64,000 bases of DNA, taken from positions 1-64,000 of IMG/VR virus record IMGVR_UViG_3300034152_000556. One strand, given 5' to 3'. The notes under the pieces are model-generated. The model was not told where the DNA came from and searched no databases. It worked only from the letters and a program-made list of their open reading frames with translations. Position 1 is the first letter of the stretch; each line of letters begins with the position of its first letter. Both the position numbers and the translations under genes were made by a program. Positions 2,919 to 56,267 of the stretch are shown piece by piece. This DNA is from a virus.

Positions 2919-3965
2919 ATGGCTAAAAACATTCTTGATGTAAAAAAGAAAAAGAAAATGGCATTGCTTCGTAAGAGAGGAGCCAACGGAGTTGCTATTG
3001 GTTATAAAGTTAAAGATGGTGTCATAACAGATGAAATATCCATCATTGTTAATGTAGAAAAGAAATTACCGAAAGCTCAACTAAAAGACGCAGACATGAT
3101 TCCAAAAGAAATCGGAGGATTCAAAACTGATGTTTTTGAGCTTGGAAAAGTTGTGGCTCTAGATTTAGATACTGAAAAAAAGTATAGACCCGCACCCTGT
3201 GGAGTATCAATCGGTCACAAGAATATCACTGCTGGGACGTTTGGGTGCGTGGTTTATCAGAATGGCGTCCCGTATATTCTAAGCAACAATCATGTTCTAG
3301 CAAATTCAAACGCAGCAAAGATTGGTGATGAAATTCTTCAACCTGGACCTCATGATGGTGGTACAATGAATGATCAGATTTCAGTTCTGCATCAATTCAT
3401 TCCAATCGATATGGGCGGCGACCCAGAGCCTCCGCCCCCATCACCACCAGATGACCCACCTGATAATGGTGGTGGTGGAAGCAGTTGCCCTATTGCTAAA
3501 GTGTTTGCTAAGTTCGGAAACTTTGTTGCTAAAGTTACTGGTTCAAGCTATGTTGTCAAGCTTGAAAAGTTTTCAGCACCAAACTATGTAGATGCTGCGC
3601 TTGCCGGTCCTGTAGAGGTCGGTGGTGATGTTACAGATGAGATTGTTGATATTGGAAAAATAAGTGGTGTGATTGAAACACCAACTTTGCTTCTTGATAT
3701 TAAGAAGTTTGGTCGAACCACACATTATACAGAAGATAAGATTCTTCAGCTTCATGCTGATGTGCAAGTTGGGTATAGCTCAACTCAGACAGCATTGTTT
3801 GAAGATCAGATTATCGCTGGGCCAATGAGTGCTGGTGGTGACTCTGGTTCTATTGTTGTTGATTTTGACAATAGAGTTATCGGTCTTCTATTTGCTGGTT
3901 CAGCTTATTCAACAATCATCAACCCAATTAAATATGTAATTGATGCGTTGAATATTACATTCTAA
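2919..3965 (+). CDS. Trypsin-like serine protease with N-terminal pro-region
   Basis: Catalytic motifs LSNNHVL (His), VDAALA (Asp), GDSGS (Ser). Confidence 0.85.
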   Translation: MAKNILDVKKKKKMALLRKRGANGVAIGYKVKDGVITDEISIIVNVEKKLPKAQLKDADMIPKEIGGFKTDVFELGKVVALDLDTEKKYRPAPCGVSIGHKNITAGTFGCVVYQNGVPYILSNNHVLANSNAAKIGDEILQPGPHDGGTMNDQISVLHQFIPIDMGGDPEPPPPSPPDDPPDNGGGGSSCPIAKVFAKFGNFVAKVTGSSYVVKLEKFSAPNYVDAALAGPVEVGGDVTDEIVDIGKISGVIETPTLLLDIKKFGRTTHYTEDKILQLHADVQVGYSSTQTALFEDQIIAGPMSAGGDSGSIVVDFDNRVIGLLFAGSAYSTIINPIKYVIDALNITF

Positions 3966-41621: not shown

Positions 41622-41794
41622 TCTTTCTCCAATACTAGATCAGCTGGATTGAATAACACCTTTTCATATTTAGGTGGTGCTTTTGGTGGTTCTGCCACGT
41701 TAGTGTTTTTGATATATTTTTTTAAATATCTTCTGTCATAATCATAGTGATACCCTGATGATGATGATGTTCCGTGGGTGTTTGACCAGCTCAT
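41618..41794 (-). CDS. Small protein, 58 aa (not in ORF track)
   Basis: ATGA overlaps at both ends (rpoB-like stop, folE2 start); MSWSNTHG...LFNPADLVLEKE*. Confidence 0.65.
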   Translation of the reverse strand: MSWSNTHGTSSSSGYHYDYDRRYLKKYIKNTNVAEPPKAPPKYEKVLFNPADLVLEKE

Positions 41795-44784
41795 CGGTGA
41801 TCAGCTCCTATAACTGTTAAATATGCATTCAACAGCTTAACTGATTCTGGTGTTGTATCCAGATCATGTGATTCTTCTGGTAAGTTTGGTGAGATCACAT
41901 CTCGTATATATCTATTTTTCATATCAATACAATCTGATTTAGTTGTAAGAAATTCAAATAGATTACATGGTGCATCGTGACCAATTAGACATGCGGTTTC
42001 CATCTCACCACATCTCTGACCCCCTTTGTTCTTTCTACCTCCCAACGGTTGAAGCGTTCTTCTTGCATATGCTCCAATACCACGAGCCGCTAGTTTCTCT
42101 TCAGCGATGTGAACCATTCTGAAGAAATAGATATAACCAGTTGCTATTCGATTAAGAAGATGCTGTTTGGCAACAGGATCATAAATCTGTTGTTTGTATC
42201 TTGTTTTTGTATAAGCCAACGCTTGAGTTAGATCGTGTTCCTTAATCGAATTAAAAGGTGGTTGAATCAGAGTTAAGTTATTGATAAATTCTTCGTCAAT
42301 TGTCTCTGGTAGATTTTCTTTGAATTGTTTTAGATACCAACCGGATTTGGTTTTGTCAATAATCTTAATATAATCAAGAATATACTTTTTCAAATCTTTT
42401 TGATTATCAAGCATTGTCAATGCTTGTTTTTTAAGGTCTTCTAGAGAGAGTGTCAGATGCAACTCAAACAGTTGACCGGTATTCATTCTAGAGATAATAC
42501 CAAGAGGATTGATACAAATATCAACATGACGACCATCAGGCAACTGTGGCATCTTATCTTGTGGTAATATTCTTGAGATAACACCTTTATTACCATGACG
42601 ATTTGCCATCTTATCACCCACCTGAACTGGGCGGAAGTGAACACCGAACATCTCTATCTCAATTCCGTTTATGCGTTCCTTCTTAAACTTGTATTTACCA
42701 ACAAATGAAAATTTATCTAAGTCGTTTTCTCTGATAAATCGATTTGCTTCATTTTTTGGTAGCTTGTCTTTGATGATTTTACAAAGATATGTTTCTCGTT
42801 CTTTCTGAGCTTCGATCTTTTTTTGAACCCAATCATCAAACTCTGGAACATCGGTATTCCACTCATTTGCATAAATATTTACATCCGAAATGATCATGAA
42901 TTTTTTCGCTTCAAGTCTATTCTCTTCATTGAATACTGAATAGAAATCTTCATAGTTCATAGACTTGATAATTGCATATGGTGCGCCTTTTTGAATTTTT
43001 TCGAACAGGTCTGGTAATGGTTTATATGTGTTCTCATCAATTGACATGAGAACTTTTGAAGGTGGCAATGTAAAAGATAAATCCATAAAGTGAACTGATG
43101 TTAAAATTTGATCTTTCACCAAACGATCTGAAACAACAATGCCATCTTCGTAATTATCTCCATAGTATGACATAACGGCTGTAAGTAAATTACGCCCAAT
43201 GTTTATTTTACCATCTTTACAGAAGTTGCTCTCTGCAAGAATATCACCAGCTTTGAATTGATCACCTGTTCTCACATAGATGTTCATGAAGTCCATGTGT
43301 TCAACATATATTTTGCGATAAGCTATTATGAAGATGTCTACTTCACCATCATCATACTGAACAATTAAATATTCTTGATCTAGATGAATTACCTCGCCAT
43401 CCTTCTTTGCTCTTTTTACAAATTGCGTATAATCTGTATAGAGCCATTCGCAGCCTGATTGAATATAAGGCTGTTCTAGCTTTTTTAATAAGATTGCTTG
43501 TCTCATTTGAGACGAAGCCATCTGCAATCTTGTTGGATCATCGTGTTCGCAAAATGGTGTCATTGATACGGGTATTGATATTGGTTGTTCATCACATATT
43601 TCATTGGTGAATTTTAGATTTTCATCAATTGAAACATTAGGTATCATGTTCTGTAAGACACCACAGTTGTCTCGGTCTGGTGTGTCAACCGGACATATAC
43701 GACCAAACATTGTAGGGCATATATCGCGTAAGTGCTTTGGTATATTTTCTCTTTTAAACCCACCCGGACCTAATAAACTAACTCTCGAAAGTTTGGTTAG
43801 TTCTTCAATTGGGTTAATAGAGAAATCAAACTGAACAATATCAGACACGTTTGATTCGTTGATAATTTGAGTTGAGTTAATATTAAACTTAGGTTGTCTT
43901 GCCGTTCTATTTGAAAAACACAAATCAAACACATTCTTTGCAACTTTAGACAATACCATGTATTCAAAACAGCGTACTCGCTTGTTTGTTAAAAGCGTAT
44001 CGTCTATGTATTGAGTTCTTGCGGCTTCGATCAACTCATCAAGAATTGTCTCTTGTGTTAAGAACTTTGCAGTCATGACATCAATTTTTGGTATAATGTC
44101 AAGTGCATACATCACATCTTCGCCTTTCGAACGAGCGTTGTATTTTGAATATAGACGACCAATTTCTAGAATGAAATCATCTTGAGTATATCCTTTTGAC
44201 TCTTCGTAGTAGCTCACTAGATCAGCCACCATTTGCTCATACAAAGTTTCAGGTTTTGGTATTGAAGCGTTTTTAAGGTCAAAACGTTTTGCCATTTCCT
44301 CCATACCAAAATAACCAAGCAACATTAGAGAGAATGGTGCTTTGCGTCCAAGAAAGCTCATCTTCAGATATGGTGGTTCTTTATCTTTGAACAACATGAT
44401 TGTTGCCACATTTGTTCTAAGCTTGATTGATGTGCCTCTTGTTACAACTGGTATATCAAACATTTGAAACAGAGGTATCTTCCTACGACCATTAATGAGA
44501 ACGTAGTTGTCCTCGATAAGTTTTGGAATGAACATGCTTAGATCAATTTCTGATGATCCTTTCTTCAATCTTATGACAAGCGATTGTCGAATTGTTTTAG
44601 ACAATTCACCAGTAGAAAACCTTGAGTCTTTCAGATCAAGTTCTGTAACAGCAAACCCAAGGTCTTCTGCTGGTTTTAGAATTTCTCGAACGGTCGGAAG
44701 TATCTGTTTATAGTCGTCTTGTCGAAGAGTGAAGATGTTTCTTTCTGGGTTTTGAATCTTAAAGATTGGGTTTATAATCTTCAC
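41791..44784 (-). CDS. rpoB: Phage multisubunit RNA polymerase beta-like subunit
   Basis: GRICPVDTPD, RLQMASSQMRQA, GRNL...NYEDGIVVS, GDKMANRHGNKGVISRI, NPLGIISRMNTGQ, GGQRCGEME. Confidence 0.93.
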   Translation of the reverse strand: MKIINPIFKIQNPERNIFTLRQDDYKQILPTVREILKPAEDLGFAVTELDLKDSRFSTGELSKTIRQSLVIRLKKGSSEIDLSMFIPKLIEDNYVLINGRRKIPLFQMFDIPVVTRGTSIKLRTNVATIMLFKDKEPPYLKMSFLGRKAPFSLMLLGYFGMEEMAKRFDLKNASIPKPETLYEQMVADLVSYYEESKGYTQDDFILEIGRLYSKYNARSKGEDVMYALDIIPKIDVMTAKFLTQETILDELIEAARTQYIDDTLLTNKRVRCFEYMVLSKVAKNVFDLCFSNRTARQPKFNINSTQIINESNVSDIVQFDFSINPIEELTKLSRVSLLGPGGFKRENIPKHLRDICPTMFGRICPVDTPDRDNCGVLQNMIPNVSIDENLKFTNEICDEQPISIPVSMTPFCEHDDPTRLQMASSQMRQAILLKKLEQPYIQSGCEWLYTDYTQFVKRAKKDGEVIHLDQEYLIVQYDDGEVDIFIIAYRKIYVEHMDFMNIYVRTGDQFKAGDILAESNFCKDGKINIGRNLLTAVMSYYGDNYEDGIVVSDRLVKDQILTSVHFMDLSFTLPPSKVLMSIDENTYKPLPDLFEKIQKGAPYAIIKSMNYEDFYSVFNEENRLEAKKFMIISDVNIYANEWNTDVPEFDDWVQKKIEAQKERETYLCKIIKDKLPKNEANRFIRENDLDKFSFVGKYKFKKERINGIEIEMFGVHFRPVQVGDKMANRHGNKGVISRILPQDKMPQLPDGRHVDICINPLGIISRMNTGQLFELHLTLSLEDLKKQALTMLDNQKDLKKYILDYIKIIDKTKSGWYLKQFKENLPETIDEEFINNLTLIQPPFNSIKEHDLTQALAYTKTRYKQQIYDPVAKQHLLNRIATGYIYFFRMVHIAEEKLAARGIGAYARRTLQPLGGRKNKGGQRCGEMETACLIGHDAPCNLFEFLTTKSDCIDMKNRYIRDVISPNLPEESHDLDTTPESVKLLNAYLTVIGADHR

Positions 44785-47486
44785 TGAATTCTTTCTCCTT
44801 TTAGTATTTTATCAAGTACTCCTGAATAACGTCCTTCGTATAGTATTCCTTGCAAGATACTTCGCTTTGGATTAGAAAACGCCATTGATAGAATCCAACT
44901 TTCTTGATTTGGTACTGATTGAACACTGTAGTAATCTGGTTCAATCTCATTTCGGTTGTCTAGCAATCGCCATTTTCTGTAATTCTTCCACATTAGCTGA
45001 GCTACAACACATTCATAATGAACATGATGTATATCGTTGTCATAGACATCAAACAACTCGTCTACAATTTCAGTGTATGTTTTTCCTTTAAATTTATGTA
45101 GTAAGGAAGACACGGTTGCGAGATCACCGATGATGTCTTGCTGTCTCATATCTTCACTTTGTCTTTCGCCTTTAATAATTGCTGATCCTGAGGTATGAAA
45201 TGTTCTCAAAACCAATTGTGTTGATCTTTCACCCAGCGTTTGTGCAGCTAATATGCCGATAAATCTACTGTTTAAACTTTTATACAAATCACCATAACAT
45301 TTTGTACATATCTTTGGTGATTTGCATAGAATAGGACTTCGAATTTCGATAGTTTTTCCAATTAAGGTGTCAATGTCATCTTTTGTTATCATAGAAAGAG
45401 TGCCATCTGGGTTTTTCATCCATCGCTTCACTAACATAGAGGCTTTCTTTCTTGTGCTGACATTAACTTCTAAGAAATCGGTTGTGCCACAATCATCCAA
45501 CGCTTCATCAAGTTGAAGGTTTGCTCCTGTAAATATCAATTTTCTTGATAGATAGCCAGATGTTCCCGTATTAAGAGCAACATCAAGAAGCCCTTTTCTA
45601 CAACCATAGGTTGAGTAGAAAAATTCTTCTTCAGTCAATCCTTCAATTAGATTGTGTTTAATTGGGAGCGGCAAAATCTCACCATCGAAATTAGAGATGA
45701 AACCGCGTGTTACAATAAGCTGCTTAACTTGATCCCAACTACCTCTAGCCCCAGACTCTATCATATATGCATATTTAAAGTGTGATTTCATCTCTTTGGT
45801 TAGAGCTTTATCTGAAATCGCCTGTAACTGTTCTCTTACATTTGGTTTGTTATAGAGACTATCTCTATACTCTTTAACTCCATCGAATATACAATCTGGT
45901 AGAGACATGGTACACCCAAATAGGGTTGAATATTTAAATCCGATTTTCTTAACATTGTCAAGAATATCCCTTGTAACTTCTTTGTTATATGTGTCTTTGA
46001 TTTCATTCAGAATTCTCATTAGAGCCTTCTTATCAACGACACCTTTTACCAACCTGAAGTCTTCGGGGAGACACTGATTAAATTCGGCTTCTCCTTGCGT
46101 TACCTTCTCACCTTTTAATAATACCTTATCTTCAGATTGATGAAATTCGTTCTTTGTCAAGAAATAAACACCAAGAATAACATCTTGGCTTGGCGTGGTA
46201 GTTAGTTTTTCATTTGCTGGGCTACTCAGGTTATTTGTAACCAATATCTTTTCTCGTATTTCTGTTTTTGCTTCTTCAGTAATTGGTATGTAAACTGCCA
46301 TTTGATCTCCATCAAAGTCTGCATTGAATGGGGGGCATACTAATGGGTGAATCTTGATCACATGCTCTAGACCAACTTTTATTTTGAACCCAAGCATACC
46401 CAAGCGATGTAGAGATGGTTGTCTATTAAGAACACAAACTTCATCTCTTACAACGTCTTGACAGACTTTAAATAGAACGGGAGATTGCATATCAATACAT
46501 TGTTCAATAAAGTCAATTGCTTTATTTAAAAGTTTGAACTTACCAAGCTCGATGATTCGTTTTGCAACAGGCAGTTTATAGATTTCTAGAATCATCAAAT
46601 ATGGCAACACACATTCGTCTAAGTTTAATGTTGGGTCTGGCGTGATTACAGCACGACCAGAGAAATCAATTCTTTTACCAAGAATGTTTCCACGAATCAG
46701 ACCTTCTTTTTTTGCCATCTTATCAAGTATCTGATCGTATAACTCTTTGACATTTTTCTGAAGTTGTTTGAAATAAGTGTAGTACAATTGTTTTTCTTTT
46801 TTGATATCAATGATCGTATCTAACATGATATCGCGTTTTGTTAAAATCTGGACATAATATCTATTGATTTTATCCATCAATTGTTTTTGCCCACCAGTTT
46901 TTGATGCTGGTCTTAGGTCGGGTGGCAATACTATGACTTTATCAATCAGAAGATTGTCTAGATTGTCTTTGATCACTTGCCATTCTTCGATCTCTTCTTC
47001 TAGATATAAGTCAGCAATCGTTTCTACCAATTTGTAGATTGCTTCAGTTCTTTCAAACTTTTCTGTTCCTTTTGGTATGTTATCGTCTGAGAGAGTCACA
47101 ACTGGGAACCCTTCACTGTCTAGATACAGTATGCTTTTCTCGTTTTTCATAAGATCGTCAAGTGCTCTCTTGATTAGTTTACCACCAAGATCGACTAGCA
47201 GATCATAGAAAAGTGGGTTGACAACGGATATGGGCATAATGATTTTTGCAAATCTCTTTCTTCTTTCGTCGCTATTTTCAATTTCGACTTTACAATCTGC
47301 ACATACCGTTCCAGCTTTCGATACTCCGTGATATTTACCACACTGACATGTGTAGTTTTTTAATGGGCCAAATATCTGTTCTGAGAATAAGCCTTCGGCG
47401 TGAAACTTCTTTTTTCCGAAAACTTTTACTGAAGTAACCTCTGGTAGTTCTTCGCAAAATTGTTGATAGTTTAAGATTTTTGGCAT
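44781..47486 (-). CDS. rpoC: Phage multisubunit RNA polymerase beta'-like subunit
   Basis: GLFSEQIFGP..CQC, PPDLRP, GKRIDFSGRAVI, NRQPSLH, NADFDGDQMA, TSGYLSRKL, TQLVLRTFH. Confidence 0.95.
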   Translation of the reverse strand: MPKILNYQQFCEELPEVTSVKVFGKKKFHAEGLFSEQIFGPLKNYTCQCGKYHGVSKAGTVCADCKVEIENSDERRKRFAKIIMPISVVNPLFYDLLVDLGGKLIKRALDDLMKNEKSILYLDSEGFPVVTLSDDNIPKGTEKFERTEAIYKLVETIADLYLEEEIEEWQVIKDNLDNLLIDKVIVLPPDLRPASKTGGQKQLMDKINRYYVQILTKRDIMLDTIIDIKKEKQLYYTYFKQLQKNVKELYDQILDKMAKKEGLIRGNILGKRIDFSGRAVITPDPTLNLDECVLPYLMILEIYKLPVAKRIIELGKFKLLNKAIDFIEQCIDMQSPVLFKVCQDVVRDEVCVLNRQPSLHRLGMLGFKIKVGLEHVIKIHPLVCPPFNADFDGDQMAVYIPITEEAKTEIREKILVTNNLSSPANEKLTTTPSQDVILGVYFLTKNEFHQSEDKVLLKGEKVTQGEAEFNQCLPEDFRLVKGVVDKKALMRILNEIKDTYNKEVTRDILDNVKKIGFKYSTLFGCTMSLPDCIFDGVKEYRDSLYNKPNVREQLQAISDKALTKEMKSHFKYAYMIESGARGSWDQVKQLIVTRGFISNFDGEILPLPIKHNLIEGLTEEEFFYSTYGCRKGLLDVALNTGTSGYLSRKLIFTGANLQLDEALDDCGTTDFLEVNVSTRKKASMLVKRWMKNPDGTLSMITKDDIDTLIGKTIEIRSPILCKSPKICTKCYGDLYKSLNSRFIGILAAQTLGERSTQLVLRTFHTSGSAIIKGERQSEDMRQQDIIGDLATVSSLLHKFKGKTYTEIVDELFDVYDNDIHHVHYECVVAQLMWKNYRKWRLLDNRNEIEPDYYSVQSVPNQESWILSMAFSNPKRSILQGILYEGRYSGVLDKILKGERIQ

Positions 47487-47492
47487 AGACCT

Positions 47493-47735
47493 TTACTCTC
47501 CCTCACTGAAAAATTCATACATCTTTTTTGCTAACATAGCCAAATGTTCTTTGACTCTATTTGATATGATTCTGTCTAAGTCTGGCATTAGTTCATTAAC
47601 AACATCTCTAATTTCATCTTGTGTTAGTTGTATTTCATTCTTCTTTATCGTTTCTTGAATCAGACTCGATAGATTCTCCTCTAGCATTTGTGCTAGAGTT
47701 TGCATTCTCTCGTCTTTCTCGTTCTTGTTCTGCAT
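47493..47735 (-). CDS. Small helical hypothetical protein (start may be the second Met)
   Basis: Immediately upstream of the rpoC-like gene. Confidence 0.55.
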   Translation of the reverse strand: MQNKNEKDERMQTLAQMLEENLSSLIQETIKKNEIQLTQDEIRDVVNELMPDLDRIISNRVKEHLAMLAKKMYEFFSEGE

Positions 47736-47940
47736 CCCGTAAACCTTTCATGATTTTGTATTTAATTTCTGTTATCTTGTAATCCCAAGCTGCTGCTATA
47801 GCAGTTGCAACTTTTTCAACAACCTTATTTAGTAACTTAGAGCCACTTTCTCGTATCAGCTGATCTATTTCTTCTACTCCCTCCTCCACTGCTTCTTCAA
47901 GTGTTTTCTTTTTTGGTTCTTGTTTGTCTTCCATACTCAC
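47635..47940 (-). CDS. Small hypothetical protein
   Basis: GTG start with SD AGGAG. Confidence 0.55.
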   Translation of the reverse strand: MSMEDKQEPKKKTLEEAVEEGVEEIDQLIRESGSKLLNKVVEKVATAIAAAWDYKITEIKYKIMKGLRDAEQERERRENANSSTNARGESIESDSRNDKEE

Positions 47941-47948
47941 GCTCCTGC

Positions 47949-48290
47949 CTATGTGATTTTTGCATATTCTTTTATTTCATGCCACGGTGTAAAGTAGCAA
48001 GCGTCTAGATTAAATGTATAGATGACATTTTCTATCATCTTTTTAGTTGTTTCATTCAGTGGTAAATTCTGTAGGTTTTCAGGTAAACAAAGTTCCCTTG
48101 TTCGTGGGTCTGCATTAGGATGATTACCCAACAATTTAACTTCGTGGATTTTGTCAAAAAGTGTCTCAACGATATATCCATCTATTATCATAAATTCATC
48201 TAGCTCTATAATTTTATAATACTCGTTTTTGTATTTCATTCGTCCTGGCTTGATTTTTTTCTTCACTTTGATTCTTTTTCTTACTTGCAT
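47949..48290 (-). CDS. Minimal UBC/E2-like protein
   Basis: HPNADPRTRELCLP resembles the E2 HPN...C catalytic signature; TGATG-coupled to the ThiF gene. Confidence 0.6.
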   Translation of the reverse strand: MQVRKRIKVKKKIKPGRMKYKNEYYKIIELDEFMIIDGYIVETLFDKIHEVKLLGNHPNADPRTRELCLPENLQNLPLNETTKKMIENVIYTFNLDACYFTPWHEIKEYAKIT

Positions 48291-49138
48291 CAAGCAGCTC
48301 CAGTTTCAGGTATTAAAACAATATACCCATGATTGTGTAACGATATCAGATATGATGGATATTCACATGGTAATGTTAATAGAGACGTTAGACTACTTAC
48401 CACATCATAACCAGTTTTCAAAGTGTTTTGTGGTATTTTTGTCTGTGATATCGGTTGTTCCTGACTCCCAACGAACACTTCAATATCACGTTTTCTATTT
48501 TCTTCAATGATTGGTATGATGTTAGTTGGTAAGTTTACGATCTGTTGCGCTTCAGCAGCGCATTCGTATACAACTTCACCATATTTCGGTTCGATTTTCT
48601 TTAGATAATCCAGTTCATATTTCTGAATGGATTGTGTTTTTATTAGCTGTCTGATGGTCTGATTAGAGACCAGCATTGATACAATAAAAGCAGCATTGCG
48701 AATGTCATCTTTTCTTAGATCAACAAGATATCTGCCGTCCTTCTGTTCTTTATATGATACATTCTTACGACAGTCAACGATAACATACCGAGAAGATATT
48801 GAAACTCTGACATCAATTATATCTTTTCGATCACAAATAATATCCCTGCAATCAAAAACGATATCGCCTTCTGGTATCTTAGTTTCACCTTCTATAAAAG
48901 TGTCATCAATAGATTTGACAACAACACCGGGATTTTGATGAATGATGATATCAGTTAAAGCTGTAACCTTTTTAACACCAACATCGATGGGTCGATATAT
49001 TGATGTTCCAAGGTTCTTCCACTCAACGGTATCAAAATCGATCAGGGTAAGTTCTTCAGTTTCGTCTAATCGAGATAAGCTATCCGCAAGAAAGCCACCA
49101 AGCGTTCCAAGTCCTGCAATTACAAAAGATTTGTACAC
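48290..49138 (-). CDS. Second ThiF/E1-like protein
   Basis: IAGLGTLGG, LIDFDTVEWKNL, VGVKKV, FDCRD; lacks the usual NxxRQ Arg; ends IVLIPETGAA. Confidence 0.75.
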   Translation of the reverse strand: MYKSFVIAGLGTLGGFLADSLSRLDETEELTLIDFDTVEWKNLGTSIYRPIDVGVKKVTALTDIIIHQNPGVVVKSIDDTFIEGETKIPEGDIVFDCRDIICDRKDIIDVRVSISSRYVIVDCRKNVSYKEQKDGRYLVDLRKDDIRNAAFIVSMLVSNQTIRQLIKTQSIQKYELDYLKKIEPKYGEVVYECAAEAQQIVNLPTNIIPIIEENRKRDIEVFVGSQEQPISQTKIPQNTLKTGYDVVSSLTSLLTLPCEYPSYLISLHNHGYIVLIPETGAA

Positions 49139-49172
49139 TGTTCAAAGCTTCCTCCGATCTGTTTGATGTTTG

Positions 49173-49198
49173 GGGGGATTCCCCTAAGAGAATCCCCC
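49173..49198 (-). terminator. Stem-loop just downstream of the Ubl gene (stabiliser or leaky terminator)
   Basis: GGGGGATTC-8 nt-GAATCCCCC; no U-tract on the minus strand. Confidence 0.55.
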
Positions 49199-49217
49199 GT
49201 CCCGGTAATGACCGCTG

Positions 49218-49703
49218 TTAGCAGCCTTTCTTACCCGCTTTTTTCATGAATTCCAGTTTGTCCTGGTCTTGCAACGTATAGCTGTCGTTGACTTTGCTGC
49301 CATTGACAATGGCATCGGCTGCGGCGTCGATGTTCAGGACATCTCTCAGGAATGCTTTCACTTCACCAACAGGTTTTCCCACTACTGGGAAGTTTCCTGA
49401 AGAAGCACCACATGAAACTTGAATTGTGGTGCTGAAACCGGCTGGACCGGCGCTCTTGTCGGTTTGCACGGTTTTGAATCCTCCGTGCATTTCGCTGATG
49501 GGGCCTGAGCTTGGTGCCGCCACTGCGAAACCGGCTGGAGCGGCGCCCGGTTTGACCGGATTGGATGCTTGGTATTCCAGAATAGCGCTGATCACGACAT
49601 CCTTCGGTTTCTTGGTGATACCGGCGATGCCCATCTCGTGATAAGCCATTCTTTTCAGTTCTTTTGCTGACATGTCTTCTAGTTGTGCTCTTGAGTAACG
49701 CAT
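49218..49703 (-). CDS. Ubiquitin-like (beta-grasp) protein fused to an N-terminal Rho-N/HeH-like domain
   Basis: LEDMSAKELKRMA..MGI....KKPKDVVISAIL; Pro/Ala linker; AIVNG...YTLQDQDKLEFMKKAGKKGC. Confidence 0.8.
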   Translation of the reverse strand: MRYSRAQLEDMSAKELKRMAYHEMGIAGITKKPKDVVISAILEYQASNPVKPGAAPAGFAVAAPSSGPISEMHGGFKTVQTDKSAGPAGFSTTIQVSCGASSGNFPVVGKPVGEVKAFLRDVLNIDAAADAIVNGSKVNDSYTLQDQDKLEFMKKAGKKGC

Positions 49704-50419
49704 ACGTTTTCTCCTTCACTTACTTGCGTAGTTGTGGTGGTTTTTGGTACTTCTCTGACCTTGGCATGGCAAGCCATTTTCTCAATGTCAAAGTAAATTT
49801 CGGAAACATTAGTTTCCGCACGAATAACAACGTTGTAGAAAGCCCAGCACATTAGCGTAGCTACTCCTAGATTTGTAAAATACAGCTGGGGTTCTGATAC
49901 AGATAGTTCTTCACATGACATCTCATGTGGAGACTTATCATCGGGTTCATCGATTTCTGGATGGTATGCACAGAGGTTTGGTGTTAGATCGCGACCCCCC
50001 TTTCGTAGATATATTTGCACATTACCATCTATATAATCGTTCCCCCCTGAGATAAGACTTATATTGTTTAGGGTTGAACAATAGTCTGAGACGAGCTTGC
50101 GTGTCTTATGATTATCGACACACATAAAAATCATACAATCCTCTTTGATAATATCTTCAACGTTTTCTTCTGTGATATATTCTGTAACTGTATCAAATTC
50201 GATATTGTCAAAAATGGCTGAAAGCTCTCTCGCCTTGATGGTGGCTTTTTTTCCAAGATCGAAGAAGTCTTGTCTTTCGAAATTCTTGGCTTCATATGAA
50301 TCACCATCAACAAAGATAAATCTCGCTTGTTCTATGTCATGATTAAAATTGACATAACGAGCGAGTCGTTCGACTAGAATGGTTCCTATACCACCGAGTC
50401 CGATTACCACTATTTCCAT
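49679..50419 (-). CDS. ThiF/E1 ubiquitin-activating-like enzyme
   Basis: IGLGGIG, DGDSYEAKNFERQ, CVDNHKTR, SGGN, SCEEL (candidate catalytic Cys), PQLYFTN. Confidence 0.9.
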   Translation of the reverse strand: MEIVVIGLGGIGTILVERLARYVNFNHDIEQARFIFVDGDSYEAKNFERQDFFDLGKKATIKARELSAIFDNIEFDTVTEYITEENVEDIIKEDCMIFMCVDNHKTRKLVSDYCSTLNNISLISGGNDYIDGNVQIYLRKGGRDLTPNLCAYHPEIDEPDDKSPHEMSCEELSVSEPQLYFTNLGVATLMCWAFYNVVIRAETNVSEIYFDIEKMACHAKVREVPKTTTTTQVSEGENVCVTQEHN

Positions 50420-50431
50420 TCACATTTCTCC

Positions 50432-51925
50432 TTATAGCTTTTTCAGGAATCGATTGAGACCAGATTGTAATCTCGTTCTTAGAGTATTTCCTTGAGTGGT
50501 CTTATCTATGATAACTTGTGGTACTTCTAACTCATGTGAGTCCACACCCGATTTATCAGTTAGAAAATCGCCTGAGTTGAGATTTTCATGAATCAATGCA
50601 AGTGGATCGGTGTAGTCATCTGGGTGTCTTACTTGAACCTCACCTTCTTCTTCTGCGCTTGGGTCATATTCATATAGGTCTTGACCGCCCCTTTCATCTA
50701 GGTCTTCTTGTACATCTTCTTCTGTTGCGTCGAGACTCATCAACATCATTCCAAATTCTAATGCTGATTTTCTGTAGAAACACGTTGAACATGTGTAGTG
50801 GATGCGGTAAAAAGCATCATCCTCCTCGACGCTTCCGGCTGGGTCATCATCGACCGGTTCCGTGCAGACTTCCAATGTCCATTCAAAGGCTTCGTCCCGA
50901 CAAGAGCAATCGCTGCATACGAATTCTCCGGTCGCGTCTTCTGCTTTTGGGTCCTTTCCTTTTGTTGTATCTAGTGCTTTCACTGGTGCTTTCTGTGGAT
51001 GAACTTCATCAAACCTTCGACCCCATTTTGATTCATACCAATCGAATAACCCATCGGGGTCGATTATGGGGTCAGCGCCTGATGCTGGATACATGCCACC
51101 ATAGTGCCCACCATATCCATAACCATAGCCATATGAATATTTGTAGGTTTTCTTTGTGACAAACCCAAGCCAGTTTTCATTGAACTGAATTTGATCTTCG
51201 GGAACTGTAAGCTTGAAACGACAATCCCATTTCCATTCGGTTTTCGGTTTTTCTTGCTTGTTCACTTTTGGCACAAGAGCACCATCTTTCCACACATAGA
51301 CTTGTGCGCCCGCTGACGGGTATGTGGTTACTTTTGATTTCTCTCGTGTCTGTGTGATACCTTCCATATAGTCAAGCGGGTCAACCTTGAATCGCTTTTC
51401 ATTTGCAACAATCGATGCTGTAATACTCACCTCTTCATCTGCAACATTACCGATTGTTATGTGCAAGCCATCAAAGTGTTTTTCATCAGCGATATCAACA
51501 CCAGAGTGAAAGGCTGAGAAGTTAGCGTGACTGTGAATGGTGCCAACTTTCAAATAACCATCAACAGTCAACTGGCGGTCATAGTCAATGGCTGCTGATG
51601 ATACCTCTTGTGTTGGTGGTAGCAGAATGAATAGTTTTGTTTTTGGGTCGTATAGAATCAGAACCATTGATTCTGATTTGTGGGTTGCATATACCCGTCT
51701 GAAGAATGTAACTGTGGTGGCAGTTTTGTCAGCTGGTATCTTTGGTAGATGAACCTTAGCCATTTGTTCGACGGGTTGGAGTGTTGCCACTCCACCGTCG
51801 ATTTTTGTAAGACTTTCCATGATACCAAGCTTTTTCTTCAGATAGAGTCCATCTTTTCCAACGATGTATAGAATATCATCGTTTGGCATCTCTTGTGTGC
51901 CATCATTGATAAAAACTCTAAACAT
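50432..51925 (-). CDS. Prokaryotic JAB/MPN metallopeptidase with long low-complexity/Cys C-terminal region
   Basis: KSE...IHSHANFSAFHSGVD (JAMM E-HxH-S-D); N-terminal YIVGKDGLY...LPKIP domain. Confidence 0.88.
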   Translation of the reverse strand: MFRVFINDGTQEMPNDDILYIVGKDGLYLKKKLGIMESLTKIDGGVATLQPVEQMAKVHLPKIPADKTATTVTFFRRVYATHKSESMVLILYDPKTKLFILLPPTQEVSSAAIDYDRQLTVDGYLKVGTIHSHANFSAFHSGVDIADEKHFDGLHITIGNVADEEVSITASIVANEKRFKVDPLDYMEGITQTREKSKVTTYPSAGAQVYVWKDGALVPKVNKQEKPKTEWKWDCRFKLTVPEDQIQFNENWLGFVTKKTYKYSYGYGYGYGGHYGGMYPASGADPIIDPDGLFDWYESKWGRRFDEVHPQKAPVKALDTTKGKDPKAEDATGEFVCSDCSCRDEAFEWTLEVCTEPVDDDPAGSVEEDDAFYRIHYTCSTCFYRKSALEFGMMLMSLDATEEDVQEDLDERGGQDLYEYDPSAEEEGEVQVRHPDDYTDPLALIHENLNSGDFLTDKSGVDSHELEVPQVIIDKTTQGNTLRTRLQSGLNRFLKKL

Positions 51926-54551
51926 TCATTATCCTCCGAGAATCTACCGGATAGAATTCACTCATTTTCTCGTTTTGGGTGAACATACCTCTGAAGTTTG
52001 GTAATCCGGGTTGTAGGTCAACAATCAATTCTTTCTCTGACATTCTTGGTGGAAGAATGCCATGCGGTAGCGCGTAACTCTTAAACGTCTCATCAAACAC
52101 AAAATAATCATGTGCAAGATTTAGAACTGAACCTAGAGATGCACAGCGCGAATCACCAAGCTTGTTCTGAAAATACATATAATCATAATCTGACTTATAT
52201 GGACCTCCAGTGATTTCAAAGACATCTCCTGGTTGTATTTTGATTTTGTTCATATCAAGTGGCACATGCTGCGTCTTTTGCCATGTCTTTGTACCCATTC
52301 GCATCTTTGTGAAGTTTGCAATCACATCTTCAGCCCAAAGAGTCAAACCATTTGAGCAAAGTACAAGGGGTTCGTCGCAGCCTGTATCTGTGATAAATCC
52401 AATGATGATATTAACATCAGTTTTCGGGAAGTTTTGAATATCATCAACTTTTGCTTTTATTTTCATGCCTGTTTGTAGGGTCTTGTATTTTGTTTTAACG
52501 TGTCTTACTGCCCCCACATCTATATAGCTTTTGTTGCCTTTGATATAGACTTTTTCTGATAACTTTCCGTCTTTGTCTTGCAGAATAAACGAAACAGTTT
52601 GCAATTCATCGTTGACTTTGAATCCCATGATAGTTTTTATCTTCAACATTTCAAGCGGCGTTTCCCAGTTTGCACAGACCACTCGATCACCAACTTCAAA
52701 TTTAATATCTCCATCGAAGCTTGGTATGTTGAGTTTGCTACCATCTATCCATTGTCGTGTAATGCTTGTGAAAGGCACATCTGCTAAACCAGCATTGTGA
52801 TTGATGTAAAAACCATCTGGTGAAGCATATGCAACAAGAACTTCTTTTTTGTGTGAATCTGTTACCGATTTAATAGCTCTTAGCTTATAGTATCGGTTGC
52901 CAACTCTGAATGGCATATTATCTATTTTTTTCAACTTGTTTAGTTGTAGATATGTCACGGTATCTTGATTTTTTGGATCTAGAATATCAATACCACCGTT
53001 TTCATTTTTGAAACGATAAATTAAATCACCAGATGGTGAAACATCTAAATCAACAAATTCTAGATTTTTGAAAGTGCTGACAATTGATGTTGATGTTAAA
53101 GTGTCGTAGTGTTTTCCAGCGTCAAATGAGAGGCAATACTTTTTTCCTGGTTTTATCAAGCGACCGAAAAGTTTTGGTTTTTCAACATTGTACTTCTCGA
53201 TCTCAAGACCATCAACAGCGGTAAAGTACTCATCACCTAAGCGAAACTCAGGTACGCCATTGAACTCTCGAATTGATATTAGCTTTTTAAATAGGGGTTT
53301 CTGGCTTACTGCGGTTTTGACAGTAACGATATCACCAATAGTTAGCTTCTTACCATTGTATTTGATATTTGCTTTTTCTTGCCTTGTCTTCATTTCTTCG
53401 AGAATTTTATCTTTGAGTTTCTTCGTAAGCTGTATCATGCGATATTCTCCATTTGGTTTTTCATATCGCATGTGAGATATATTGGGTGTTCTTGCAGATG
53501 ATAGAAATGATACCACTCTAACTTCTTGATTTTTATGAGTGAAGGTGTCTCCCGGATATAGAAGAAACATCCCATTGCTATCAAGATGTACAACTGCCGA
53601 TGCGTTTTCTTTCAATGGCTGTGGTTTTGTATCATCGGTGATTTCATCTGATGAGAAACTAGTTTTGAAGAATGTTGTAATTCTTGATATATCAGCAGAT
53701 ACGCTAGAATTTAGACTTATATTACGACCACTATTAAGCGTGTATTTGATAGCTGCACCGAGAGTTGCTTTTTTTGCCAACAGCCACCTGACTTTAAATA
53801 TAAACATTGGGTCGTTGATGGTTCGATGTGCCCACTCTATCGGATTTGAGACATACGGTGTCTTTGCTTGATGATATCGATTTGGGTTATACATATAGTC
53901 CGAGTTAAATTCGTTGTTCCAGAAAAAGTGCATATAATTTTGAATGAACACTGCAACGTTTGGATAGTTCGAACCCATACCATCACCTAGACAGCACCAT
54001 AGACCATCGTTTAGATTTGGAAGATTGGCATAAAACATCGGGTCACCCATGCCCATTACTGGCGCTGGTCTGAAATAAACGGTAGAACCACGATAACGGT
54101 TGTTTGAATCAACAATAACAATATGGATGATATATGGAAATGCAAAGTTGATTGTATGTAGTTCTCGTGAGCCGCCTTTGCTATCGAAGTGTTTATCAAT
54201 CACATCTTTCCACTCATCATACATTCCACGGTCTCGTGCGTCTTTAATTTCATTTGCAAAGTTTCTACGCATGTTGACTGTTCTAATTGCTGGTTGTTCT
54301 TCGATAACAACACACTTATTTCCGTGCATATCTTCATATATGTAGCGACAGTTCATGGGAAGGATACCATCGTAGGTAAACTCTCTTGTTGTTAGCCTCT
54401 TCTGTAATTGGTTCAGAAGAATATTTGTTGGAATTATACCTTTCGTAATTTTTGCTTTTGGGTCTTTCCAACTTTCATCTCTATATTTATCTGGAATTTC
54501 GCTGCCGTATAGAACGGCGTACTTCTTGTTCAGCCGAATCTCTTCGATCAT
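51918..54551 (-). CDS. Large prokaryotic E2 (family D/PRTRC-B-like) protein with repetitive beta-rich C-terminal region
   Basis: FAFPYIIH...MFYANLPNLNDGLWCCLG...FFWNNEFN; overlaps the JAB gene start. Confidence 0.7.
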   Translation of the reverse strand: MIEEIRLNKKYAVLYGSEIPDKYRDESWKDPKAKITKGIIPTNILLNQLQKRLTTREFTYDGILPMNCRYIYEDMHGNKCVVIEEQPAIRTVNMRRNFANEIKDARDRGMYDEWKDVIDKHFDSKGGSRELHTINFAFPYIIHIVIVDSNNRYRGSTVYFRPAPVMGMGDPMFYANLPNLNDGLWCCLGDGMGSNYPNVAVFIQNYMHFFWNNEFNSDYMYNPNRYHQAKTPYVSNPIEWAHRTINDPMFIFKVRWLLAKKATLGAAIKYTLNSGRNISLNSSVSADISRITTFFKTSFSSDEITDDTKPQPLKENASAVVHLDSNGMFLLYPGDTFTHKNQEVRVVSFLSSARTPNISHMRYEKPNGEYRMIQLTKKLKDKILEEMKTRQEKANIKYNGKKLTIGDIVTVKTAVSQKPLFKKLISIREFNGVPEFRLGDEYFTAVDGLEIEKYNVEKPKLFGRLIKPGKKYCLSFDAGKHYDTLTSTSIVSTFKNLEFVDLDVSPSGDLIYRFKNENGGIDILDPKNQDTVTYLQLNKLKKIDNMPFRVGNRYYKLRAIKSVTDSHKKEVLVAYASPDGFYINHNAGLADVPFTSITRQWIDGSKLNIPSFDGDIKFEVGDRVVCANWETPLEMLKIKTIMGFKVNDELQTVSFILQDKDGKLSEKVYIKGNKSYIDVGAVRHVKTKYKTLQTGMKIKAKVDDIQNFPKTDVNIIIGFITDTGCDEPLVLCSNGLTLWAEDVIANFTKMRMGTKTWQKTQHVPLDMNKIKIQPGDVFEITGGPYKSDYDYMYFQNKLGDSRCASLGSVLNLAHDYFVFDETFKSYALPHGILPPRMSEKELIVDLQPGLPNFRGMFTQNEKMSEFYPVDSRRIMNV

Positions 54552-54554
54552 TCT

Positions 54555-54929
54555 TTATTCTCCTCGAAAGTATTTCACAAGTTTCGCATACTCCGTTAGA
54601 ATGTTCTTTGCCTTTGCCTCTTTAATATCCCAAGATTTCTTCGGAAATTTTTGAGTTTCTCGTGGGTCAGATTTTATCGCAGCCTTTGGTATTGACCAAA
54701 GTCTTGCAACATAATGACCTATGCTTTCGCGTTCTAATGTTAGATAACACAGTTCGCTATCATAACGACCTGGAACTTCTAAAGTGAGAATGACATTTGG
54801 CCCTTGCGGGGCATATTTTATATTCATATGAGGATGTTCTTCTTTTTCAATTAGGTCGCACATCTCTCTTACTTTATCAAGTTCCTCATCGTATGGTGTT
54901 CCTGCAATGAGTTTTCCTAGTGTTTTCAT
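54555..54929 (-). CDS. Hypothetical protein
   Basis: ATGA-coupled to the upstream gene. Confidence 0.65.
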   Translation of the reverse strand: MKTLGKLIAGTPYDEELDKVREMCDLIEKEEHPHMNIKYAPQGPNVILTLEVPGRYDSELCYLTLERESIGHYVARLWSIPKAAIKSDPRETQKFPKKSWDIKEAKAKNILTEYAKLVKYFRGE

Positions 54930-55234
54930 GCTGGTTTCCTTATTCTGTATCTTACCTTGTCTAACTCTACCCAATCGGCTTGCTTAAATGGAATAGAACG
55001 CCATTCTTGTTTTTCCAAATCAAAGCAATGAATTATTCCATTTTTACGCATTAAATTGACGATTTTCTTAATATTTACAGATTTCGGATGTTGCTTTTTT
55101 GGAATTTGAGTAAAGTCTAAGGTGCATACCATTACTCGAATTGTTCCGTCCTTTTTCTTGAATTTGACAACAGCTTCTTTTGCTTTAGAAAGCTTTTCCC
55201 AAAAATCAAGAGCAGATGTGATTTCATCAGCCAT
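54926..55234 (-). CDS. WYL_2/DUF2693-like SH3 beta-barrel protein
   Basis: VKFKKKDGTIRVMVCTL...FDLEKQEWRSIP. Confidence 0.75.
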   Translation of the reverse strand: MADEITSALDFWEKLSKAKEAVVKFKKKDGTIRVMVCTLDFTQIPKKQHPKSVNIKKIVNLMRKNGIIHCFDLEKQEWRSIPFKQADWVELDKVRYRIRKPA

Positions 55235-56267
55235 CTTTCTTACCCTCCCTTACATCTAGGTGTACTAACCCTGCAACATCATCAGTCATGCTCATAAGCT
55301 GGCATGTATGATTACAGAGTTGACAATAATTTCTTTTATCTCGTATCAGTGCTTCTCTCACTTGATATGATACCTCTCTCCTTTGAACAAACAGATTCAT
55401 TAGAGAGTTATACTTTGGAGTATGTACGCCTCTTATACGCAGACAAAGTCGAATTGAACCATCAGCATCTATGGTAATATTATGAATACCTTGCTCTAAG
55501 AAACAATCTAACTTTGCTGGTAAAATATCAAAAATCTTTTCTAATAGATAATGCTTCATATGAACATTACATTTTCGGTCATCTAGTATTTTTACAAGTT
55601 CACCAGCGAGTCGCAGACTTGGTCTTACCAACTGTTCTGTACCATAAACATTTGAAAAGTCATACCAGCTGTTTTTTGCGATATCGACAAATGTCAAATC
55701 GCTACAGATACCCAAGTCTGAAAGTTTCCTGATAAACCTATGTAGATCAGAAATATCATGTTTCATTACGGTTACTTCAGCAACAAGGTCTTTGATTTTC
55801 GTGTGTTCTTTCAAAACTACTAAATTTGCTAGACCTTCTCGACTCTTTTTTGCTCGATCTGAATTATCAGTTGCTAAAACAGGGTCGATGGATGCTGTGA
55901 AACCTTTTATCTCATCGACACTTCTTAATAGATTGGTGATTCTATCTTGAATGCCTCTTGAGTTGTTGCTTATAATTGTATAATGCATTCTGTTTTCATT
56001 GCAGAAGTTTATTATATCTGGTAAGTCATTTCTTAGTAATGGTTCGCCGCCATAGAAGATATGAAAACAATCTGGGTTGTGCATTTTAAATTGCAACAAA
56101 GCCATCTTGATATAATCCAGCGACATTTCATTTTTATGATAATAAGATGAGATTGGATAGTCACCTTGACCGCCTCCACCGGCTATGATAGCACAGTACT
56201 TGCAGTTTAAATTGCAACGGCGAGTTAGTATCCAATTCACAATTTTGATTCGTTCTTTATTTTCCAA
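55227..56267 (-). CDS. Radical SAM enzyme with Cys-rich C-terminal (SPASM/twitch-like) region
   Basis: CNLNCKYC, YGGEPLLR, C...IDADGSIRLC...CQLCNHTC. Confidence 0.85.
   Translation of the reverse strand: MENKERIKIVNWILTRRCNLNCKYCAIIAGGGGQGDYPISSYYHKNEMSLDYIKMALLQFKMHNPDCFHIFYGGEPLLRNDLPDIINFCNENRMHYTIISNNSRGIQDRITNLLRSVDEIKGFTASIDPVLATDNSDRAKKSREGLANLVVLKEHTKIKDLVAEVTVMKHDISDLHRFIRKLSDLGICSDLTFVDIAKNSWYDFSNVYGTEQLVRPSLRLAGELVKILDDRKCNVHMKHYLLEKIFDILPAKLDCFLEQGIHNITIDADGSIRLCLRIRGVHTPKYNSLMNLFVQRREVSYQVREALIRDKRNYCQLCNHTCQLMSMTDDVAGLVHLDVREGKKDG

Follow-up and report, generated by a model that had tools for sequence, protein, structure and literature searches.

Does a virus of bacteria run a ubiquitin-like protein-tagging pathway of its own? 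The question is raised by six tightly packed genes on the minus strand (positions 47949–54551) of a 64,000-nt stretch of viral DNA, hereafter the window, which comprises the first 64 kb of a 108.7-kb record of IMG/VR (IMGVR_UViG_3300034152_000556). The completeness of this record was estimated at 35% by CheckV, implying a genome of ~300 kb, and its phage origin is sound because genes for tail sheath, baseplate wedge, tape measure, and large terminase proteins are also present in the window. The first-pass annotation, made from the letters alone, read the six genes as a large E2, a JAB peptidase, an E1, a ubiquitin-like protein (Ubl), a second ThiF-like protein, and a minimal E2 (E2L, JAB, E1a, Ubl, E1b, and E2s, respectively). 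All six open reading frames (ORFs) are indeed found in this interval, as are the motifs quoted for them (LPNL..GLWCCLG in E2L; HSH-x7-S-xx-D in JAB; GLGGIG, NFERQ, and MSCEEL in E1a; ..AGKKGC in Ubl; and HPN-x8-C in E2s), and the six identities were borne out by Pfam, NCBIfam, profile-profile comparison, AlphaFold models with fold searches, and statistics of the C-terminal Gly.

Protein-guided scans of IMG/VR gathered 9 and then 43 related loci, the 52 together amounting to ~43 distinct contigs. Using hidden Markov models (HMMs) of the six proteins, all six genes were found in identical order in 52 of the 52 loci, far beyond chance, at protein identities of 20–60%, and the motif residues of the cassette proteins are invariant across these relatives. 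Each of the relatives that are 71–79% complete carries one Ubl gene and two ThiF-like genes. Given this fixed order and gene content, the cassette is a core feature of a large uncultured lineage of jumbo phages (~250–310 kb) and not an accessory island. A DNA search of the cassette against 50,697 phage GenBank records gave no match. E2L as a single sequence likewise found no match in the viral loci scan, a word-indexed protein search, phage tblastn, Pfam, PADLOC, PHROGs, or PDB; its homologues were obtained by an alignment-based scan and an exhaustive HMMER search, the latter placing it in a family of 547 clusters (50% identity; most full length), counted at E<=1e-3 among 1.84 billion representatives. 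Homologues of E1b and E2s are limited to the clade of related phages, with contigs of up to 309 kb.

E2L (51918–54551; 877 aa) consists of an N-terminal ubiquitin-conjugating (UBC)-like domain of the Prok-E2_D type at residues ~55–265 (53757–54389) and a conserved extension of ~600 aa. The candidate catalytic residue Cys187 (codon 53991–53993) and Asn179 are the same in all of 130 sequences, comprising 129 representatives and the window protein. The window protein alone gave no match to Prok-E2_D (PF14460) in the Pfam scan; five of eight orthologues did (best E 3.1e-6), and the E2L profile aligned with three E2_D proteins of Bacillus phage or plasmid origin (hhalign, 97.8%, E 6e-12) with the Asn...Cys motif in register. 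In the AlphaFold2 (AF2) model of residues 1–275 (pLDDT 90), helices, a four-stranded sheet, the Asn179 loop, Cys187, and three helices follow one another in the UBC order. A search of this domain with VIA-align, which is independent of Foldseek, returned E2/UBC entries in all of the top 13 rows (124 residues aligned at the best Z, 5.3; according to the tool, values under 8 can mean merely a common arrangement), and entries of the bacterial Bub complex, CdnG-E2, and Cap2 were located lower in the list. No internal repeats were found in residues 300–877 of the extension. Its best-kept block, at residues ~680–777 (52221–52511), has no family or fold assignment, and F708-P, D722, P728, L731, S733-N734, T737, and G775-D776 in this block are conserved in at least 94% of the 130 sequences. 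It may be a binding site or a second catalytic site.

JAB (50432–51925; 497 aa) is a JAB/JAMM metallopeptidase with a PRTRC_A-like N-terminal domain. The motif His131-x-His133-x7-Ser141-xx-Asp144 is kept without exception in 43 sequences; Glu85, which lies upstream of it, is the majority residue at its alignment position. The protein matched NCBIfam TIGR03735 PRTRC_A (E 1.3e-10; 41 bits against a cut-off of 101.8) and Pfam Prok-JAB (E 2.7e-4; 24.2 bits in another scan), and its weak PDB matches, 10 out of 10, were to RPN11/PSMD14, aligned on the JAMM motif. By these scores, JAB appears to resemble the PRTRC_A family, short of the equivalog level. The C-terminal region is variable and contains one or more CxxC...CxxC zinc-ribbon motifs, in which Cys337 and Cys340 are invariant.

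E1a (49679–50419; 246 aa) is a compact protein of the ThiF/MoeB type, and its gene overlaps the Ubl gene by 25 nt. It exceeds the Pfam cut-off for ThiF (E 7.2e-20, 71.6 bits) and matches TIGR03736 PRTRC_ThiF at 1.8e-8, with 34 bits and thus under the cut-off of 144.75. In the alignment with Escherichia coli ThiF in PDB (5e-5), GxGxxG, N-F-E-R-Q, and VDNHKTR are in register. Since GxGxxG (GLGGIG), DGD, N-[FY]-E-R-Q (NFERQ), and VDNHKTR are all present, and both Cys169 (MSCEEL) and Cys191 are invariant across orthologues, E1a is predicted to be a complete ThiF-type adenylating enzyme.

Ubl (49218–49703; 161 aa) is composed of a Rho_N/HeH head (residues ~5–48), a Pro/Ala/Gly linker, and a predicted ThiS-like beta-grasp domain (~86–160), and ends in ..AGKK-G160-C161. 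The Rho_N match is just over the Pfam cut-off (25.3 versus 24.9 bits), and the head is doubled in two relatives. Residues 126–155 gave weak Pfam matches to TGS (0.012) and ThiS-like (0.065) families; no match to PF14454 or PRTRC_C was obtained at E<=1 in Pfam or NCBIfam. In the ESM Atlas, the part spanning residues 85–161 has TM scores of 0.86/0.84 to a viral cluster, 28% of whose members carry Pfam ThiS, and of 0.72 to RnfH. K159 and G160 are invariant in 41 sequences. The C-terminus is G in 23 of 40 distinct orthologues and GC in 13; every synonymous codon occurs among the C-terminal codons, and this free variation indicates that the C-terminus is constrained at the protein level. Trimming of the terminal Cys by JAB, which had been proposed as the first step of the pathway, can therefore not be its main conserved role, since more than half of the distinct orthologues already end at Gly.

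These four proteins can be assigned to a phage branch of the PRTRC or Iyer '6d' class. Class '6d' (Prok-E2_D, JAB, ThiF, and Ubl) was predicted by Iyer, Burroughs, and Aravind in 2006, with hosts that include B. cereus and B. thuringiensis (PMC1779556), and the PRTRC cassette is represented in NCBIfam by TIGR03734-03742. The phage core shares with this class a Prok-E2_D-type E2 with Asn...Cys, a JAMM peptidase with a PRTRC_A-like N-domain, a compact ThiF-type E1, and a small Ubl, as well as the adjacency of the E2, JAB, and E1 genes and a location on mobile or viral replicons near replication genes. It differs in several respects. The phage cassette has no ParB-like protein, and no match to ParB_N (PF02195) was found in the record containing the window or in three relatives that are 71–79% complete, all four records being incomplete. 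Its Ubl is ThiS-like with a Rho_N/HeH head and not of the Prok_Ub/PRTRC_C type, its JAB and E1a score under the NCBIfam equivalog cut-offs, and its E2L carries the 600-aa extension and lacks the invariant His after Cys: in class 6d E2s, a His on the C-terminal side of Cys is absolutely conserved (Table 1 of Iyer et al. 2006; PMC1779556), whereas no His occurs at any position conserved in at least 90% of the 130 E2L sequences. Finally, the phage cassette adds the E1b-E2s pair and is a fixed core set of lytic-type jumbo phages, not a sporadic mobile cassette.

E1a-like genes also led to the cultured Bacillus jumbo phages vB_BceM_WH1 (LC597490 gp214-216), vB_BauM_KLEB27-3 (OM634661 gp196-194), and Edson (PV796108) and, on plasmids, to the 235-kb B. 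thuringiensis replicon pBTHD789-2. In WH1, KLEB27-3, and pBTHD789-2, genes for a 241–270-aa protein, a 'PRTRC_A domain' JAB, and a ThiF protein are arranged in a row. The phage triad matched the HMMs of E2L, JAB, and E1a at E values of 2e-8, 1e-16, and 3e-28, respectively (the E2L match being in WH1 and KLEB27-3), and the E2 protein of pBTHD789-2 is over the Pfam cut-off for PF14460 Prok-E2_D. The triad thus shares a homologous E2L N-domain, JAB, and E1a in the same order, annotated merely as hypothetical, PRTRC_A-domain, or ThiF-family proteins, but its E2 is a stand-alone protein of 241–270 aa, no adjacent Ubl, E1b, or E2s was found, and it is not beside RNA polymerase (RNAP) genes. Fold matches in BFVD added further uncharacterized phage proteins, including one from Acinetobacter phage ME3. 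The core therefore belongs to a class already predicted, and a triad of it exists in cultured phages. No paper describing a phage-encoded E1/E2/JAB/Ubl cassette was found in the literature search, and a genomic overview of jumbo phages makes no mention of one (PMC7824862). Three features are not described in any paper found, namely the status of the cassette as phage core, the HeH head of its Ubl, and the combination of an extended E2 with the E1b/E2s add-on.

The characterized bacterial relatives include Bil and Bub. Bil (BilABCD, types I and II), an antiphage ubiquitination system, comprises an E1, an E2, a Ubl, and a JAB, and its deubiquitinase pre-processes the Ubl to expose Gly, with conjugation to lysine having been demonstrated (PMC10557695). 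The phage core shares this four-part logic of Ubl, E2, JAB deubiquitinase, and E1, but Bil is a host-encoded defence system with a large IAD+AAD+CYS E1 and a CEHH or other E2, whereas E1a has 246 aa and a single adenylation domain. The sole Bil signal was a PADLOC match to BilD (E 0.021), and E2s, JAB, and Ubl had no Bil match. Bub (formerly '6E') has an E1 without the catalytic Cys, forms oxyester intermediates, and contains peptidase-E1 and Ubl-E2 fusions (PMC11601596). It shares with the phage cassette a diverged bacterial E1/E2/Ubl pathway, and chain D of 9eav (Citrobacter BubCD-BubB-BubA) is among the fold matches of E2L and E2s (Z 4.4 and 3.8, respectively), but none of its peptidase-E1 or Ubl-E2 fusion architectures is found in the phage.

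The four-gene core is rather likely to be a true Ubl conjugation cascade of the PRTRC/'6d' type. E1a would bind ATP and adenylate Gly160 at the C-terminus of Ubl; in the phages whose Ubl ends in Gly-Cys (approximately one third, including that of the window), the JAMM peptidase would first remove the Cys. Ubl would then pass as a thioester to Cys169 of E1a and on to Cys187 in the Prok-E2_D domain of E2L, the 600-aa extension of which may serve as a built-in substrate adaptor, and would be placed on lysines of a target; the JAMM peptidase would also reverse the mark. Because Ubl carries a Rho_N/HeH head, tagging would covalently add a nucleic-acid-binding module to the target. The related bacterial cascades Bil, Cap2, and Bub do conjugate proteins (PMC10557695; 10.1101/2022.03.31.486616; PMC11601596).

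Several points weigh against this interpretation. The Ubl fold is drawn solely from an ESM Atlas model and weak Pfam matches, and the best PDB match of the Ubl profile is the FHA domain of Dun1 (E 0.008), through a short VNG..GD strand motif; an FHA identity was considered and was judged to be a likely coincidence of motif. The models of E2L and E2s have no match at E<=1e-3 in Foldseek searches against PDB, and the fold matches of both are modest (Z ~5). The second ThiF-like protein, E1b, lacks the Arg of NxxRQ and an invariant loop Cys, and the E1b-E2s pair perhaps forms no E1-E2 relay. Sets of E1, Ubl, and JAMM proteins can also be sulfur carriers. In addition, no biochemical data on any PRTRC/6d system were found in the literature searched.

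The cassette is not a single uniform operon, as had first been supposed. A GC-rich hairpin with an 11-bp stem is located on the minus strand 20 nt past the stop codon of the Ubl gene (49173–49198), and, of 41 loci, 40 have an equivalent hairpin at this place, with differing, covarying sequences, a median minimum free energy of −23.6 kcal/mol, and a median z of −5.2 relative to shuffled sequences. It is followed by a U-tract in some loci, and its role may be that of a terminator, an attenuator, or an element that stabilizes mRNA. In the window, it may attenuate transcription or stabilize the upstream mRNA rather than fully terminate, because only ~35 nt lie between the hairpin and the E1b start. 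At exactly this position, between Ubl and E1b, one or two extra genes are inserted in ~60% of the relatives (e.g. L004:11210-11797; L006:2694-3242 and 3292-3558). These genes, which are absent from the window, encode a 150–210-aa protein with a conserved ..ARGVSICS..D.F.K..G.. motif and an 80–95-aa protein, neither of which has a Pfam match. From E1b on, neighbouring genes overlap or lie a few bases apart, continuing through g80, rpoC, and rpoB. Since the conserved hairpin and the inserted genes split the cassette after Ubl, the six genes are two modules: the PRTRC-type core (E2L-JAB-E1a-Ubl) and an E1b-E2s add-on that is physically tied to the RNAP genes. A scan for sigma-70 promoters found sites to be no commoner than in shuffled sequence. 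The sequencing runs listed were four DNA metagenome runs from one study, with no RNA run among them. The linkage to RNAP that had been pointed out stands as conserved synteny of core genes; since the triad of the Bacillus phages does not adjoin RNAP genes, it need not mean a functional link of the core module to transcription.

E1b (48290–49138; 282 aa) is composed of a ThiF-like Rossmann half and an unclassified C-terminal part of 175 aa. The Pfam ThiF match (7.2e-15) covers residues 5–110 alone; profile matches to MoeB (4.5e-14), ThiF, Cap2, MccB, and PaaA each cover residues 4–106 alone; and the alignment with E1a (hhalign, 93%) is likewise confined to the Rossmann half. Invariant residues include G9/G11/G14 of GxGxxG, D34, D36, K57, D96-C-R-D99, and R104. 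In 41 sequences, the site aligned with the Arg of NxxRQ is Asn in 31 and Thr in the window protein, and the sole invariant Cys is the structural one in DCRD, with no invariant Cys in the catalytic loop. E1b thus looks like an ATP-binding, non-canonical E1. Its C-terminal tail, E278-T-G-A-A282 (48290–48304), is conserved in 38–41 of 41 orthologues with all synonymous codons in use, and this free codon variation argues that the tail is under peptide selection and is not merely a ribosome-binding site. A fused Ubl domain at the end of E1b was also considered, but hhalign of the C-terminal half against the Ubl beta-grasp or E1a gave nothing. One E1b orthologue (P0202) lies on a 255-kb contig and is filed at NCBI as a protein of a Candidatus Thorarchaeota metagenome-assembled genome; this contig probably comes from a jumbo phage of the same clade that was mis-binned.

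E2s (47949–48293; 114 aa) is a predicted minimal UBC-like protein, whose likely start is the ATG at 48290, giving 113 aa and a 1-nt overlap with the E1b stop. In its HPN-x8-Cys motif, His58, Asn60, and Cys69 are invariant in 41 sequences, and Pro59 is conserved in at least 90%. Its sole PDB profile match is an E2, aligned on HPN..C (E 1.1), and PF00179 was matched by 1 of 41 family members (E 0.0059). In the AF2 model (pLDDT 94.3, pTM 0.86), three UBC helices (the N-terminal one and the final two) are missing, and the order of beta-sheet, Asn loop, Cys, and helix is kept. Among the top 50 Foldseek rows for PDB, ~40 were E2s, all at E >= 0.4; the wide VIA-align search had a best Z of 5.4 (1yrv_A, 96 residues aligned) with UBC/UEV entries in most of the top 30, and all 50 rows of pdb_via were E2s (Z 3.9–4.5). 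Because fold and motif position agree, with family membership in addition for E2L, the E2 assignments of both proteins are considered well supported despite the modest Z values, and E2s looks catalytically competent. Since hhalign of E2s against the E2L N-domain or E2_D gave no signal, the two are not detectably related. Of the two E1/E2 pairs originally proposed, the gene architecture is thus confirmed; as to function, the second pair departs from the canonical form through the residues missing from E1b, and there is one Ubl per genome. Prediction of an E1b + E2s complex scored 0.28 against a mark of 0.32, which speaks neither for nor against binding.

What this clade-specific add-on, running straight into g80-rpoC-rpoB, might do can be framed in two ways. 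It is possible, albeit rather doubtful, that one Ubl is sent along two routes, with E1b as a second activator or as a degenerate partner that pairs with E1a like the inactive domain of eukaryotic and Bil E1s, and with E2s as a further E2 that steers this Ubl to other targets, possibly the adjacent RNAP. Such an arrangement would fit a genome in which one Ubl gene stands against two ThiF-like and two E2-like genes, and the residues absent from E1b recall non-catalytic E1 halves (PMC10557695); E1b, E2s, g80, and rpoC are also packed with overlaps of a few bases. On the other hand, E1b keeps GxGxxG, both Asp residues, Lys57, DCRD, and Arg104, which would be needless in an inert scaffold, the hairpin and often one or two inserted genes part it from E1a and Ubl, and the Bacillus phages manage with a single E1.

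The conserved tail suggests a second, quite unlikely scheme, in which E1b is both enzyme and modifier: E1a, or the other subunit of an E1b dimer, would adenylate the ETGAA tail in trans, Cys69 of E2s would receive it, and the outcome would be ligation of E1b to a target encoded in the same unit, possibly the phage RNAP. The analogy is with type II CBASS Cap2/Cap3, where E1 and E2 take as their substrate the disordered C-terminus of an enzyme that has no beta-grasp fold, and the modification is undone by a JAMM peptidase (10.1101/2022.03.31.486616). The E1b tail stays open as a substrate because Cap2-cGAS shows an E1 adenylating a disordered enzyme C-terminus. The Rossmann half of E1b does match Cap2 (PADLOC 5.5e-10; PDB 2.7e-10), but Cap2 is a fused E2-E1, whereas E1b and E2s are separate and in E1-E2 order, and the matches cover residues 3–100 of E1b alone. 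No nucleotidyltransferase/CD-NTase was found in the cassette by ORF list and Pfam scan. If this scheme were true, the phage would possess two parallel conjugation cascades of distinct chemistry, with a CBASS-cGAS-like logic, operated by a virus, in which an E1-like protein is attached.

For the core module, a sulfur-carrier pathway is a decidedly unlikely alternative to conjugation. E1a would adenylate Ubl to yield a thiocarboxylate that provides sulfur for modification of a nucleic acid or a cofactor, the JAMM peptidase would mature or recycle the carrier in the manner of QbsD and Mec, the HeH head would deliver the carrier to DNA or RNA, and sulfur insertion could fall to the radical-SAM enzyme encoded nearby. 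Ubl is indeed ThiS-like rather than ubiquitin-like, the best named matches of E1a are ThiF, MoeB, and Uba4, the radical-SAM gene lies three genes upstream in every relative reaching that far, and sulfur systems with E1, Ubl, and JAB have been described (PMC1779556). In common with ThiF-ThiS/MoeB-MoaD, QbsCDE, and CysO-Mec, the core has an E1 that is compact and of the homodimer type, a predicted ThiS-like beta-grasp with Gly at its C-terminus, and a proposed trimming of extra C-terminal residues by a JAMM peptidase. However, these carriers have no E2, end in G-G, and work with a sulfurtransferase partner, whereas two UBC-fold proteins with invariant Asn...Cys, of which sulfur carriers need none, are conserved alongside the phage Ubl, which ends in K-G; a search of four records (71–79% complete in three cases) gave no rhodanese domain, and the closest operon class, 6d/PRTRC, always has an E2.

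A counter-defence device, in which the JAMM peptidase strips Ubl or cGAS conjugates of host Bil, CBASS Cap2, or Bub, or the phage Ubl tags and inactivates defence proteins, would agree with the role of all characterized bacterial relatives in phage defence and with the ability of JAMM proteins to antagonize such systems (overexpressed Cap3 counteracts CBASS; 10.1101/2022.03.31.486616), but has little probability, given that counter-defence genes are usually patchy and fast-changing whereas these six are fixed in every locus within a replication/transcription block, that the E1b and E2s families are confined to the clade, that a full E1-E2-Ubl set exceeds the needs of a deconjugase, and that PADLOC defence models match only generic Rossmann parts of the cassette proteins.

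Conjugation by a phage-borne PRTRC/6d-type core would extend the known range of bacterial Ubl chemistry, for which the systems shown experimentally so far (Bil, Cap2, and Bub) are all host-encoded and antiphage. With a complete tagging kit as a fixed core of a phage clade, it appears that a bacterial virus relies on protein-tagging chemistry of its own; of the operon classes predicted in 2006, that of the kit (6d/PRTRC) is the one for which no experiment was found. The nucleic-acid-binding head on the tag points to a new Ubl use, namely the tethering of proteins to DNA or RNA, and for the E1b/E2s pair with its conserved tail no described counterpart was found. The cultured Bacillus jumbo phages with the E2-JAB-E1 triad make part of the question testable at the bench.

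The cassette is embedded in a larger block with the order SbcD-SbcC-radical SAM-WYL_2-g139-E2L-JAB-E1a-Ubl-[0-2 inserted genes]-E1b-E2s-[g101]-g80-rpoC-rpoB. The genes for the radical-SAM enzyme (Pfam E 2.5e-11), the WYL_2 Sm-like protein (E 1.4e-10), and g139 are located directly upstream of E2L on the minus strand (54555–56267); the former two were each found in 49 of the 52 loci, and g139, an unclassified protein of 124–139 aa, in 45. The conserved C-terminal ..RGE of g139 led to its consideration as a second Ubl, which was rejected: its last codons are kept at synonymous sites, with the Shine-Dalgarno-like GAGGTGAA before the E2L start, and its tail looks helical. On the other side of the cassette, two small minus-strand ORFs (47493–47940) precede rpoC and overlap by ~100 nt in different frames. 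One of them, g80 (47493–47735), is a small helical ORF between E2s and rpoC, which was detected by HMM in 52 of 52 loci and has no informative family match; g101, present in only ~40% of the loci, is perhaps not a genuine gene in each of them. The rpoC-like (44781–47486; 901-aa beta') and rpoB-like (41791–44784; 997-aa beta) genes follow on the same strand. Both are unsplit and compact and are <30% identical to anything in the 50,697 phage records, the nearest full-length matches being bacterial-type rpoC genes and those of Rhizobium phages such as RHph_Y65.

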